Source: Escherichia coli (GTDB lineage Bacteria > Pseudomonadota > Gammaproteobacteria > Enterobacterales > Enterobacteriaceae). Taken from it: DNA of 64,000 bases. The DNA is taken from assembly GCF_001677475.2 (NCBI RefSeq), contig NZ_CP015229.1, one strand, 5' to 3'. How positions within the stretch are numbered: the stretch's first letter is position 1; the number at the start of each line of letters is the position of its first letter. The notes beneath the pieces are model-generated. The model saw only the letters and a program-made list of their open reading frames with translations. It ran no database searches and was not told the DNA's origin. Positions 28,252-49,927 of this stretch are shown here, one piece after another. Position numbers and translations under genes: made by a program.

Positions 28252-30297
28252 TTAATCGACAAAATCACCGTGCTGCCTGGCTACCAACGTCAGAATTGAA
28301 TACAGCGCCACCGGGGTTTGATGCTGATTGAATACCTCTACCGACCATTCCACCACACCTGTTGGTTTTTCTTCTGCGCTACGCTGTTTTTTCAGCGTCT
28401 TGCGCTTACAGGTGAGACGCACCTGGATGGTATCGCCTGGTTTTACGGGTTCGATAAAACGCAAGCTTTCCAGCCCATAATTAGCAATGACCGGACCGAC
28501 ACCGGCATCGACAAACAGACCCGCAGCCGCAGAAAGCACAAAATATCCATGTACCACACGCTCACCAAAAATAGATTCGGCAGCAGCAATCTTATCCATA
28601 TGCGCATAGAAATGATCGCCGCTGAGGCAAGCAAAGTTAACAATATCGGCCTCTGTCATTGTTCGGCGGGGAGTCAACAGGCTGTCGCCTGGTTGCAGCT
28701 CCTCAAAATATTTGCGGAACGGATGAATACGATCTTCTTCGACTTTCGCACCACGCACCCACTGTTTACTGATTGCGGCAAGCATCGTCGGACTACCCTG
28801 AACAGCGGTTCGCTGCATGTAATGTTTCACCGCTCGTAAACCGCCTAATTCTTCACCGCCTCCTGCGCGACCAGGCCCACCATGTACCAGTTGTGGCAGT
28901 GGGGAGCCATGCCCGGTGGATTCTTTTGCCGATTCTTCATTGAGGATCTGAATTCGCCCATGCGTACGTGCCGCGTCGGCAATAAACTGACGCGCAATTT
29001 GCGGATCAGCCGTCACCAGCGTTCCCGCAAGGCTACCGCCGCCTGCACAAGCTAGTTGCAGAGCATGTTGCTGGTTTTGTGCTGGCATCAGTGTTGCGAC
29101 AGGGCCAAAGGCTTCTGTTGCATGTACCGCCGGTGTTTCATCCGGCTGCGGACAGTACAATAAGGTTGGCGGGAAGAAGGCACCCGCAGCAGATAAATCC
29201 GCCTGACCACCGAGGCGAATCTCGCATCCTGCAGCCAGCAATGTGTTCACTTTTTCCTGCACATCGGCACGCTGCTCAGCATTTACCAGTGCGCCCATTT
29301 TCACGCCTTCCTGCCCAGGATCACCGACCACGACTTTCTGTAATCGCGCAACCAGAGTATCACTGACAGCATTAACCAATGCCTGCGGCACAATAATCCG
29401 CCGGATTGCCGTACATTTTTGCCCGGCTTTTGTGGTCATCTCACGCACAACTTCACGAATAAACAGCGCAAACTCCGGTTGATCCGGGGTGACATCTTCG
29501 CCCAGTACGCAGCAGTTCAGGGAATCAGCTTCCATGGTGAAGGGGATAGATTTGGCTACGATATTTGGCTGAACTCGCAGCATCTGTCCGGTCGCCGCTG
29601 ACCCCGTGAAAGTCACCACATCCTGGCTGTCCAGATGATCCAACAAGTCGCCCGCACTACCGCAGATCAGACTAATTGCGCCTTCGGGAACAAGACCACT
29701 ATCGACAATTGATTTCACCATCGCCTGAGTCAGTTGGGCCGTCGCGGTAGCTGGTTTGATGATGGCTGGCATTCCGCCCAGCCACGTTGGTGCCAGCTTT
29801 TCCAGCATTCCCCAGCAGGGGAAGTTAAAGGCGTTAATATGCACTGCCACGCCTGACTTTGAGGTCAGTACATGGCGCGCGGCAAATCCTCCTTCTTTCG
29901 ATAAGGGGATCAATTCATCTTCCGGCCACAGCGTATCGTCAGGCAGCTCCCGGCTACCGAGGCTGGCGTAAGTAAATAACGTCCCAATACCGCCTTCAAT
30001 ATCAACCCAACTCTCTGCCCGCGTTGCGCCTGTTTGCGCAGAAAGAGCATAGAAACGCTCTTTTTCACTCAGCAGATGTTTAGCGACCGCTTTAAGCATC
30101 GCCGCACGTTCGATAAAGGTCATAGCGCGGAGGGCGGGGGCGCCTTTTTCAATGGCAAACTGGCGGGCAGCCGCCATATCAAGACCTTCACTGGTCACTT
30201 CCCATAACGCCTCGCCGCTAATGGCGTGATGAATCAAACGGCTACGGCCCCGGCCAGACTGCCAGGTACCGGATAAGAAACTGGCTAACTGCTGCAT
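28252..30297 (-). CDS. paaZ: Bifunctional oxepin-CoA hydrolase / 3-oxo-5,6-dehydrosuberyl-CoA semialdehyde dehydrogenase
   Basis: 681 aa, ALDH domain plus C-terminal MaoC-like hydratase. Confidence 0.95.
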
Positions 30298-30340
30298 CGC
30301 TACTCTCCAGATGTTTCACATTTCTGTTTCTAATAGTTAA

Positions 30341-30352
30341 ATCACGAATCAT
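30341..30352. promoter_or_regulatory. Putative PaaX operator half-site near the paaZ promoter
   Basis: ATCACGAATCAT (reverse complement contains TGATTCGTGAT), the recalled PaaX recognition motif. Confidence 0.5.
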
Positions 30353-30527
30353 AAAAAGCAAGGCGTATTTTAACGAAGTGTTAACTGTGCGATCTGTATA
30401 TCAACCACTAAAAACATTAATGCACTGATAAATAATGAGTTATAAAAATAGGGTGCGAAATCCGTCACAGTTCAAACATACAAAATTTGTGATTTTAGTT
30501 AACCATTGTGTAACTTTCATAAAACAA

Positions 30528-30540
30528 CGTGATTCGTGTT
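30528..30540. promoter_or_regulatory. Putative PaaX operator near the paaA promoter
   Basis: CGTGATTCGTGTT contains TGATTCGTG; about 45 bp upstream of paaA. Confidence 0.5.
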
Positions 30541-30581
30541 TTTAATTAATTCAAGAAAATTGGAATCGTAAAGGTGATGAC

Positions 30582-31511
30582 GTGACCCAAGAAGAACGCT
30601 TTGAGCAACGGATAGCCCAGGAAATGGCTATCGAGCCGCAGGACTGGATGCCCGATGCTTACCGAAAGACATTGATCCGCCAGATTGGGCAGCATGCGCA
30701 CTCCGAGATTGTTGGTATGTTGCCTGAAGGTAACTGGCTCACTCGCGCACCAACCTTGCGGCGTAAAGCAATTCTGTTAGCCAAAGTGCAGGATGAAGCC
30801 GGTCATGGTCTGTATCTCTATAGCGCCGCCGAAACACTGGGCTGCGCCAGAGAAGACATCTACCAAAAAATGCTCGACGGACGGATGAAATATTCCTCCA
30901 TCTTTAATTATCCGACATTGAGTTGGGCTGATATCGGCGTTATCGGCTGGCTGGTGGATGGCGCAGCGATCGTCAATCAGGTGGCGTTATGCCGCACTTC
31001 TTATGGCCCGTATGCCAGAGCAATGGTGAAAATCTGCAAAGAAGAGAGTTTTCACCAGCGTCAAGGGTTTGAAGCCTGTATGGCACTGGCGCAGGGCAGC
31101 GAAGCTCAAAAGCAGATGTTGCAAGACGCCATTAACCGTTTCTGGTGGCCAGCCTTAATGATGTTCGGGCCAAACGATGATAACTCGCCAAACAGCGCCA
31201 GAAGTCTCGCCTGGAAAATCAAACGTTTCACCAACGACGAACTCCGCCAGCGTTTTGTGGATAACACCGTTCCACAGGTTGAAATGCTCGGTATGACCGT
31301 TCCTGACCCGGATCTGCATTTTGATACTGAAAGCGGTCACTACCGCTTTGGTGAGATCGACTGGCAGGAGTTTAACGAAGTAATTAACGGTCGCGGAATT
31401 TGTAATCAGGAGCGGCTCGACGCCAAACGTAAAGCCTGGGAAGAAGGTACCTGGGTACGGGAAGCAGCGCTGGCCCATGCACAAAAACAACTTGCCTGTA
31501 AGGTCGCATAA
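30582..31511 (+). CDS. paaA: Phenylacetyl-CoA 1,2-epoxidase catalytic subunit
   Basis: 309 aa; first gene of the paa operon. Confidence 0.95.
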
Positions 31512-40093: not shown

Positions 40094-40193
40094 CGTGTCG
40101 CCTGGCCCTGGTGAGGTAAAGCGCCAGGGCCAGAAGTCGATACGACCTGTGCTATGATTCATAAATCACAACAATAACAACAGACTGAATCGA

Positions 40194-41144
40194 ATGAGTA
40201 AACTTGATACTTTTATCCAACATGCTGTCAACGCTGTTCCTGTCAGTGGCACATCTTTGATCTCCTCTCTGTATGGTGATTCGCTTTCCCATCGTGGTGG
40301 TGAAATCTGGCTGGGTAGTCTGGCTGCTTTGCTGGAAGGGCTGGGATTTGGTGAGCGTTTCGTCCGCACCGCTTTGTTTCGTCTTAATAAAGAAGGCTGG
40401 CTGGATGTTTCCCGCATCGGGCGACGCAGTTTCTATAGCCTCAGTGATAAAGGCTTGCGTCTGACGCGACGGGCAGAAAGTAAAATTTATCGCGCAGAGC
40501 AACCTGCATGGGATGGTAAATGGCTCCTGTTGCTCTCGGAAGGTTTAGATAAATCAACGCTGGCTGATGTCAAAAAGCAGTTGATCTGGCAAGGTTTTGG
40601 CGCACTGGCACCCAGCCTGATGGCATCGCCGTCGCAAAAACTGGCGGATGTACAGACACTTTTGCATGAAGCGGGTGTGGCGGATAACGTGATTTGTTTT
40701 GAAGCGCAAATACCACTGGCGCTTTCTCGTGCAGCACTGCGTGCCAGAGTGGAAGAGTGCTGGCATTTAACTGAACAAAATGCCATGTACGAAACCTTTA
40801 TTCAGTCATTCCGCCCGCTGGTGCCGCTGTTAAAAGAGACGGCAGACGAGTTAACCCCGGAGCGTGCATTTCATATTCAGCTTTTACTGATCCATTTTTA
40901 TCGCCGTGTCGTCCTTAAAGACCCATTATTGCCGGAGGAGTTGCTTCCGGCACACTGGGCAGGGCATACGGCGCGTCAGCTGTGTATCAACATTTATCAG
41001 CGCGTAGCGCCTGCTGCTTTAGCGTTCGTTAGTGAAAAAGGTGAAACCTCGGTCGGTGAACTGCCTTCGCCGGGTAGCCTGTATTTTCAACGTTTTGGCG
41101 GTTTGAATATTGAACAGGAGGCGTTATGCCAATTTATCAGATAG
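40194..41144 (+). CDS. paaX: Phenylacetyl-CoA-responsive transcriptional repressor PaaX
   Basis: 316 aa. Confidence 0.95.
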
Positions 41145-41716
41145 ACGGTCTGACTCCGGTTGTACCAGAAGAGAGTTTTGTTCATCCGACAGCGGTATTG
41201 ATCGGCGATGTTATTCTCGGCAAGGGCGTTTACGTTGGACCAAATGCCAGTCTGCGTGGCGATTTTGGTCGTATCGTGGTGAAAGATGGCGCGAACATTC
41301 AGGATAATTGCGTTATGCACGGTTTTCCCGAGCAGGATACTGTCGTTGAAGAAGATGGGCATATTGGTCATAGCGCTATCCTTCACGGCTGCATTATCCG
41401 CCGCAATGCATTAGTGGGAATGAACGCGGTCGTGATGGACGGTGCGGTGATTGGCGAGAATAGCATTGTTGGCGCATCCGCATTTGTGAAAGCCAAAGCA
41501 GAAATGCCTGCTAATTACCTGATTGTCGGCAGCCCGGCGAAACCGATTCGTGAACTCAGTGAGCAGGAGCTGGCATGGAAAAAGCAGGGCACGCATGAGT
41601 ATCAGGTGCTGGTGACACGTTGTAAGCAGACGTTGCATCAAGTCGAACCATTGCGGGAAGTTGAGGCTGGCAGGCAGCGTCTGGTATTTGATGAGAATCT
41701 GCGACCGAAACAGTAA
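41126..41716 (+). CDS. paaY: Hexapeptide-repeat thioesterase/acyltransferase PaaY
   Basis: 196 aa left-handed beta-helix protein; overlaps paaX end. Confidence 0.95.
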
Positions 41717-41760
41717 CGTCCTGATGCTGGACGTTCTAATTTTTAGCATGTGATACCTAA

Positions 41761-41793
41761 ACCGCAACGCTGATACAGGTTGCGGTTTTTTTA
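41761..41793 (+). terminator. Rho-independent terminator after paaY
   Basis: Stem ACCGCAAC/GTTGCGGT followed by TTTTTTT. Confidence 0.75.
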
Positions 41794-41947
41794 TTGCCGA
41801 ATGCGGCGCTTTACGCGTTTTGTTTTGGTGTCTTTCAGGACAATAGAGCAACTCATCCAGTAATCTTGTTTACGCCTTCGCATTATTTATCTCTTTTCGT
41901 TTCTATACTGATTTTTCTCAATCCGTTTTATTACAGGGCAGGGTGCG

Positions 41948-42808
41948 ATGAGCAGCAATACATTTACTCTCGGTACTAAATCCGTTAACCGTCTTGGTTA
42001 TGGCGCGATGCAACTGGCAGGTCCTGGGGTTTTTGGCCCCCCAAGAGATCGCCACGTCGCTATAACCGTGCTGCGTGAGGCGCTGGCATTGGGCGTCAAT
42101 CACATTGATACCAGCGACTTTTATGGTCCGCACGTCACCAATCAGATTATCCGCGAAGCGCTTTATCCTTACTCTGACGACCTGACAATTGTCACTAAAA
42201 TTGGTGCGCGGCGTGGAGAGGACGCTTCCTGGTTGCCCGCCTTTTCTCCGTCAGAGCTGCAAAAAGCGGTGCACGATAATCTACGTAATCTCGGGCTGGA
42301 CGTACTGGATGTGGTTAACTTGCGCATTATGATGGGGGATGGTCATGGCCCAGCGGAAGGCTCGATTGAGGCCAGCCTGACCGTGCTGGCAGAGATGCAA
42401 CAACAAGGCCTGGTAAAACATATTGGCCTGAGCAACGTCACACCGACGCAGGTTGCAGAGGCGCGCAAGATTGCCGAAATTGTCTGTGTGCAAAACGAAT
42501 ACAACATCGCGCACCGTGCTGATGATGCAATGATTGATGCTTTGGCCCACGATGGCATTGCCTACGTGCCGTTCTTCCCGCTCGGGGGCTTTACACCGCT
42601 GCAATCCTCTACGCTGTCGGATGTTGCTGCGAGCCTGGGTGCAACACCCATGCAGGTGGCGCTGGCGTGGCTGTTACAACGTTCACCGAATATTTTGCTG
42701 ATCCCAGGGACGTCTTCTGTTGCTCATTTACGGGAGAATATGGCTGCTGAAAAATTGCATCTTTCTGAGGAAGTGTTGTCTACGTTGGATGGTATTTCGC
42801 GAGAATAA
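41948..42808 (+). CDS. ydbC: Aldo/keto reductase family oxidoreductase
   Basis: 286 aa; K-12 synteny. Confidence 0.85.
   Translation: MSSNTFTLGTKSVNRLGYGAMQLAGPGVFGPPRDRHVAITVLREALALGVNHIDTSDFYGPHVTNQIIREALYPYSDDLTIVTKIGARRGEDASWLPAFSPSELQKAVHDNLRNLGLDVLDVVNLRIMMGDGHGPAEGSIEASLTVLAEMQQQGLVKHIGLSNVTPTQVAEARKIAEIVCVQNEYNIAHRADDAMIDALAHDGIAYVPFFPLGGFTPLQSSTLSDVAASLGATPMQVALAWLLQRSPNILLIPGTSSVAHLRENMAAEKLHLSEEVLSTLDGISRE

Positions 42809-46863: not shown

Positions 46864-49927
<3,064 letters not shown>

Follow-up and report, generated by a model that had tools for sequence, protein, structure and literature searches.

Predicted bipartite PaaX operators in the divergent paaZ/paaA control region of Escherichia coli

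The paaZ/paaA intergenic region

The DNA analysed here (64,000 nucleotides of the Escherichia coli contig NZ_CP015229.1, called the window below) carries the divergently oriented genes paaZ and paaA. They are separated by a gap of 284 bp (30298-30581) that extends from the paaZ ATG (30297, minus strand) to the paaA GTG (30582). Both genes, as well as paaX and paaY, which together span 40194-41716, were named by NCBIfam equivalog models.

28252-30297, minus strand: paaZ coding sequence, 681 aa (ORF list; TIGR02278 PaaZ, 1203 bits; RefSeq annotation of 98.3%-identical E. coli matches)
30571-30584, plus strand: paaA ribosome-binding site AAGGTGA and GTG start codon (AAGGTG conserved in the cross-genus alignment)
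30582-31511, plus strand: paaA coding sequence, 309 aa, GTG start (ORF list; TIGR02156 PaaA, 515 bits; RefSeq annotation of E. coli matches)
40194-41144, plus strand: paaX, gene of the cognate repressor (TIGR02277, 409 bits for a cut-off of 264)

The paaA start is the same in strain K-12, where the gene is annotated as paaA b1388. When the PaaX protein of the window was compared with PDB 8A39 (E. coli PaaX repressor), a full-length match was obtained (E = 8e-206), the two lengths being essentially identical.

The paaZ/paaA region was up to 98.3% identical over 700 bp to annotated E. coli chromosomes, and it was found in 3131 of 5426 complete E. coli genomes, in three of them on plasmids. The gap itself was 98.6% identical to that of strain 1190 and 93.3% identical to that of K-12 (19 substitutions in a gapless alignment). 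Among E. coli genomes, its identity to the window ranged from 90% to 98.6%, which is unusually divergent for the species; the regulatory boxes of the gap were invariant in E. coli despite that divergence. A search of the control region against Rfam gave no family match.

The initial annotation had placed a PaaX-type motif at both ends of the gap (30341-30352 on the minus strand and 30530-30538 on the plus strand). Exact copies of the 9-mer TGATTCGTG were indeed present at 30343-30351 (minus strand), inside the first of these intervals, and at 30530-30538 (plus strand), and no others occurred in the 64-kb window. By itself, a count of two is not significant, as 0.74 copies were expected and at least two were obtained in 18 of 100 shuffles. 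Such a count would be compatible with the co-occurrence, by chance and devoid of function, of a short AT-rich word in AT-rich intergenic DNA. It is the placement and the context of the copies, rather than their number, that carry the signal. Both are confined to 0.4% of the window, namely the 284-bp gap, and each begins 52-54 bp upstream of the start codon to which it points, a symmetry that argues against chance. Furthermore, the whole window was scanned with the 15-bp motif WWTRTGATTCGYGWT, reportedly the PaaX consensus of Ferrandez et al. 2000; the best two matches were those at the paaZ promoter Pz (no mismatch) and at the paaA promoter Pa (one mismatch), and the next best had two mismatches.

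Bipartite PaaX sites and core promoters

The site of the E. coli PaaX repressor has been given as TGATTC(N27)GAATCA (review citing Kim et al. 2004, PMC9493321). An exact search of the window for TGATTC-N26-28-GAATCA returned no match, because each of the E. coli operators has one mismatch. When up to one mismatch was allowed, four sites were observed for 0.66 expected, and none of 200 dinucleotide-preserving shuffles of the 64-kb window reached four. Three of the four sites were located at the three paa promoters Pz, Pa and Px, an enrichment that is again hard to reconcile with chance.

30312-30351, minus strand: predicted Pz PaaX operator; TGATTC 30351-30346, N28, GAAACA 30317-30312 (11 of 12 bases match)
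30530-30568, plus strand: predicted Pa PaaX operator; TGATTC 30530-30535, N27, GAATCG 30563-30568 (11 of 12 bases match)
40155-40192, plus strand: predicted third PaaX operator, at Px; TGATTC-N26-GAATCG (11 of 12 bases match)
47904-47942: intragenic bipartite match; TGATTC-N27-AAATCA, in a 585-aa ORF (46864-48621) downstream of the paa cluster

The Px site ends 1 bp ahead of the paaX ATG (40194) and overlaps a -10-like hexamer, TATGAT, at 40153-40158; it presumably corresponds to the Px operator already known to mediate paaXY autoregulation. With an expectation of 0.66 such sites per window, the fourth one is probably due to chance.

The initial annotation had proposed a comparison with the published consensus; both 9-mers contain the TGATTC half-site of this type of operator. 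The Pz operator includes the minus-strand 9-mer (30343-30351) together with a 15-mer, TTTATGATTCGTGAT (30341-30355; no mismatch to WWTRTGATTCGYGWT), and the Pa operator the plus-strand 9-mer (30530-30538) together with a 15-mer, AACGTGATTCGTGTT (30526-30540). In K-12 (U00096.3), the two 15-mers correspond to 1453686-1453700 and 1453871-1453885. In both cases, a partner half-site was found 27-28 bp further towards the gene. Judged from the sequence, the two 9-mers would not be partners of each other; each is predicted to be the well-preserved, promoter-proximal half of its own operator, an imperfect palindrome of about 40 bp, of which the gene-proximal half at Pz (GAAACA) is weak. The unit that PaaX would recognise is then the pair of hexamers and not the 9-mer. 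It had also been claimed that one motif faces each promoter. Each 9-mer does read towards its gene; as the full site is palindromic, this direction reflects only which of the two halves is better preserved and is not a property of the operator itself.

We infer the following core promoters from conserved hexamers and published start sites:

30333-30361, minus strand: proposed Pz core promoter; -35 TTGCTT 30361-30356, 17-bp spacer, -10 AACTAT 30338-30333
30487-30516, plus strand: proposed Pa core promoter; -35 TTGTGA 30487-30492, -10 TGTAAC or TAACTT 30509-30516

At Pz, the PaaX half-site sits inside the spacer between the proposed boxes, which read AAGCAA (30356-30361) and ATAGTT (30333-30338) on the plus strand and are both conserved in the cross-genus alignment. 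At Pa, TTG and TGTAACTT (30509-30516) are conserved across genera, the choice of hexamers being ours. A generic sigma-70 scan missed both Pz and Pa; its sole match in the region was on the minus strand (30520-30492) and at chance level.

Start sites were computed from published K-12 tables. The K-12 ArcA box located at -62 to -42 of the paaZ start corresponds to 30367-30387 of the window, so that the Pz start falls at 30325 (A, minus strand), 7 nt downstream of AACTAT (PMC3798270, Tables S8 and S4). Relative to this start, the Pz operator extends from about -26 to +14, with the 15-mer at -30 to -16; the DNA between the two boxes, the -10 box itself and the start site lie under the operator. 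The Pa start could be bounded by means of the published ArcA footprint coordinates to about 30516-30520, or up to 30523 if the -10 box is TAACTT; the supplements of PMC3798270 list no primers that would fix it exactly. The Pa operator is thereby placed from about +8/+12 to +50, in the initial transcribed region.

For E. coli, PaaX is described as competing with RNA polymerase at Px, by steric hindrance, and at Pz, and as acting by another mechanism at Pa (PMC9493321). The position of the Pz operator fits such a competition with the polymerase, and that of the Pa operator fits a mechanism other than competing for polymerase binding.

Conservation of the control region across species

For a phylogenetic footprint, PaaA was used in a scan that retained one genome per species and yielded 80 loci. 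The divergent arrangement of paaZ and paaA is kept in Enterobacteriaceae (gap of 282-288 bp), in Providencia, Xenorhabdus and Serratia (322-338 bp) and in Acinetobacter. One of the loci (L004, JAEYLX010000046.1) comes from a metagenome-assembled contig labelled 'Bacillota bacterium', and its PaaA is 94% identical to that of the window; this contig is most likely mis-binned or contaminant enterobacterial DNA.

On the Pa side, about 40 species had a TGATTC-N26-28-GAATCA pair whose distance from the paaA start was fixed (12-15 bp in Enterobacteriaceae, 18-38 bp in other enterobacterial genera); the pair was perfect in most of them and had one mismatch in a few. The 27-bp spacer of this operator had a mean identity of 0.39, for 0.26 in random sequence. 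On the Pz side, 27 other loci from Enterobacteriaceae (L002-L029, leaving out L004 and L028) all had GAATCA (plus strand) at the corresponding position; the half nearer to the gene was degenerate across species (TGTTTC, TGTTAC or TGGTTC).

The 'GTG' tail of the 9-mer was unconserved, other genera having TGATTCAcc, TGATTCAtc or TGATTCGca. Within E. coli, the Pz copy reads TGATTCGCG in K-12 and most strains and TGATTCGCA in strain HS-02, and of eight aligned E. coli-type sequences just two, those of the window and of strain 1190, have GTG at both Pz and Pa. Compared with K-12, there is one difference in each 15-bp PaaX motif (GCG to GTG at Pz, AATG to AACG at Pa), and owing to these two substitutions the 9-mers are identical to each other in the window, unlike in K-12. 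Both alleles of the window occur elsewhere, Pz GTG in strain 1190 and Pa AACG in strains 1190, 40EC, KKa014 and 2023CK. On this alignment, the identity of the two 9-mers appears to be an accident of the lineage, and the functional core would be the pair of hexamers.

This lineage-specific identity is what one might expect if the two copies had met by chance. The TGATTC cores and their partner half-sites are nevertheless conserved in about 40 species in which the neighbouring bases vary, and the cores match the published PaaX consensus (PMC9493321). Because the half-sites are conserved across species, the reading by chance is effectively refuted, and we give it almost no weight.

The distance between the two promoter-proximal half-sites was also examined. 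In 28 species of Enterobacteriaceae from more than a dozen genera, it was held at 182-185 bp. The central filler, which separates the Pz module from the CRP site (30395-30453 in the window; same stretch in L001-L029), measured 56-58 bp in these 28 species; its sequence had a mean pairwise identity of 0.40, for 0.26 in random sequence, and a G+C content ranging from 22% to 64%. The length of the filler is thus held and its sequence is not, which suggests a phasing or architectural constraint between the promoter modules and gives a small hint of coupling between Pz and Pa. That the PaaX operators and the CRP, ArcA and IHF modules form one nucleoprotein complex of fixed geometry seems to us improbable on present evidence; if it were true, Pz and Pa would be mechanically coupled, for example by a bend, a loop or a shared CRP. 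In the literature consulted, to which the primary PaaX footprint papers did not belong, no description of Pz-Pa coupling in the paaZ/paaA region was found.

The same constant distance, maintained although the central 56-58 bp are nearly free to vary, could be taken to mean that the two 9-mers are arms of a single long-range inverted repeat, which PaaX might bridge into a loop or which might extrude as a cruciform. In the window they do form an inverted repeat of 13 nt, with arms 92% complementary and 178 nt between them. Each 9-mer has, however, a local partner half-site at the published N27/28 spacing, and Px carries the same local bipartite site and has no distant partner. Beyond TGATTC, the arms are unconserved in other species and even in K-12. 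Furthermore, 183 bp correspond to about 17.4 helical turns, which would set the half-sites on opposite faces of the DNA. At the RNA level, the arms are not co-transcribed and are unable to pair, because the Pz copy lies upstream of its own start site. A long-range repeat is therefore very unlikely as the explanation of the pair, and two local PaaX operators are preferred.

Sites for global regulators and regulation of Pz and Pa

Four further sites, two of them published for K-12, were located between the predicted operators:

30367-30387, minus strand: ArcA box upstream of Pz (published K-12 site; followed by the conserved TGCGATC 30388-30394)
30418-30430, minus strand: IHF-like site TATCAGTGCATTA, candidate only (one mismatch to WATCAANNNNTTR)
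30454-30469, plus strand: CRP site TGCGAaatccgTCACA, TGCGA-N6-TCACA, centre 30461.5 (exact match to TGYGAN6TCACA)
30474-30527, minus strand: four-repeat ArcA-P site that overlaps the Pa core promoter (K-12 site from the literature; 2 substitutions)

In PMC3798270, CRP is listed as a regulator and as an activator of paaA. The initial annotation expected a CRP site between the operators, and the one at 30454-30469 bears this out: it is one of two TGYGAN6TCACA matches in the window, agrees with TGTGA-N6-TCACA at 9 of 10 bases, and has half-sites that are conserved, around a variable spacer, in all aligned Enterobacteriaceae. Its centre lies between -57.5 and -61.5 of the Pa start, itself placed within a few bases; with a start at 30523 it would be at -61.5, one of the positions (-61.5, -71.5 and so on) typical of class I activator sites for CRP. 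A second candidate, TGTGA-N6-TTAAC at 30488-30503, was rejected as a CRP site, its right half being poor and unconserved. In addition, the heptamer TGCGATC at 30388-30394 (TGTGATC in most other genera) is strongly conserved and adjoins the Pz ArcA box. It resembles a lone CRP half-site; a full 16-mer, if there were one, would have its centre at -70.5 of Pz, and its other half is unconserved.

The K-12 paaZ ArcA box is TAGTTAACATTTCGTTAAAAG, at 1451736-1451756 of U00096.2 and -62 to -42 of the start (PMC3798270, supplementary tables). It maps onto the window in a gapless alignment with 3 substitutions, and the block 30367-30394 is strongly conserved across genera. The K-12 paaA ArcA-P site covers 1451843-1451896, for a 57-bp footprint from -46 to +11 (PMC3798270, Table S4), and ArcA-P was reported to exert a strong anaerobic repression on a paaA-lacZ fusion (PMC3798270). 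The ArcA boxes are direct repeats with an 11-bp centre-to-centre spacing, and the 2-3 substitutions of the window fall outside the GTTAA cores. These footprints come from the literature on E. coli.

For IHF, listed as a regulator of paaA/paaZ from EcoCyc (PMC3798270, Table S8), the control region was scanned with WATCAANNNNTTR, which gave two candidates with one mismatch. The candidate at 30418-30430 is flanked upstream by A/T-rich DNA, is identical in K-12, and is invariant among 8 aligned E. coli-type sequences but for one position in one of them. Its YTGAWA core is kept only in AT-rich lineages, and the region is unconserved in GC-rich lineages. Of the expectation that an IHF site lies between the operators, what stands is a one-mismatch match at 30418-30430, which we retain as a candidate only. 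An 80%-identical direct repeat was noticed beside it, formed by 30338-30357 (TAAATCACGAATCATAAAAA) and 30429-30448 (TAAATAATGAGTTATAAAAA); the latter copy resembles the Pz PaaX box in degenerate form and adjoins the IHF-like site. This repeat may be due to chance in AT-rich DNA.

Alternatively, the two motifs might be recognised chiefly by CRP or ArcA, both global regulators, and not by PaaX. The GTGA in cGTGATTCG resembles a CRP half-site, and the published Pa ArcA footprint ends at +11, where it abuts the Pa 15-mer. No second CRP half-site is however found at N6, and a well-formed, conserved CRP site is present elsewhere (30454-30469). As for ArcA, the repeats given by Park et al. extend no further than 30527 and leave out TGATTC (PMC3798270). 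The same motif, in addition, recurs ahead of paaX. We consider a reading by CRP or ArcA to be extremely improbable.

The gap is thus best read as the known divergent Pz/Pa control region, in which each TGATTCGTG copy is the promoter-proximal half of a PaaX operator of about 40 bp (TGATTC-N27/28-GAATCA); we estimate the probability of this reading at about 93%. What is expected of operators for an E. coli-type PaaX, a GntR-like repressor, was found here: the spacing of the hexamers, their position at the promoters, paaX in the same window and the drift of the spacer sequence.

In E. coli, PaaX represses Pz, Pa and Px and is released by phenylacetyl-CoA (PMC9493321). The initial annotation had invoked this repression of Pz and Pa and this release, and the review supports both for the species; binding and release belong to that literature, to which our analysis adds that the 9-mers of the window carry the predicted operator half-sites. 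The regulation would then proceed as follows. When phenylacetyl-CoA is absent, PaaX, encoded 10 kb downstream, would bind the Pz and Pa operators, and the Px operator would likewise be occupied as long as phenylacetate is lacking. At Pz, PaaX would lie on the start site, the -10 box and the spacer and so exclude RNA polymerase; at Pa, PaaX bound to the early transcribed sequence (about +8 to +50) would block a step other than a simple competition for polymerase binding. Upon conversion of phenylacetate to phenylacetyl-CoA by PaaK, PaaX would be released and both operons induced. CRP, and possibly IHF, would raise the output of Pa when preferred carbon sources are absent, and the two ArcA-P sites would shut the system off under anaerobic conditions.

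This system is already known, PaaX control of Pz and Pa being textbook-level E. coli aromatic catabolism; only the mapping of the elements to the coordinates of the window and the comparative evidence are new. The genes are the same as in the Pz-Pa region of E. coli W and K-12 (Ferrandez et al. 2000; Kim et al. 2004; Fernandez et al. 2014, via PMC9493321). The gap of K-12 has the same 284 bp, and its TGATTC, GAATCG and GAAACA half-sites, CRP site, core promoter blocks and start codons are identical to those of the window. Px, the paaXY promoter of the same cluster, shares the bipartite architecture and is repressed by PaaX through steric hindrance (PMC9493321); it differs by its spacer (26 bp instead of 27/28 bp) and by having a single operator, with no divergent pair. 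The multi-repeat ArcA-P sites of paaA and paaZ (Park et al. 2013, PMC3798270), which map to 30474-30527 and 30367-30387 and are both conserved across genera, differ in that they constitute a separate layer of anaerobic shut-off and abut the PaaX half-sites without including them.

As an aid to annotation, positions in the window are now available for the predicted PaaX operators at Pz, Pa and Px, the proposed core promoters of Pz and Pa, the site for CRP, both sites for ArcA and the IHF candidate. The hexamer pair as the putative unit of recognition bears on motif models for PaaX and on the engineering of phenylacetate-inducible promoters.

Two observations concern the rest of the paa cluster. 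After the paaY stop, the next ORF (286 aa) follows at a distance of only 232 bp (41716-41948). K-12 presumably carries a disrupted ydbA autotransporter pseudogene and IS elements downstream of paaY, which appear to be absent from the window. Finally, a G+C-rich stem-loop (CTGGCCCTGG...CCAGGGCCAG) without a T-run was observed at 40103-40133, just past the paaK stop and ahead of Px; it may be a terminator or an RNA-stability element that divides paaA-K from paaXY.
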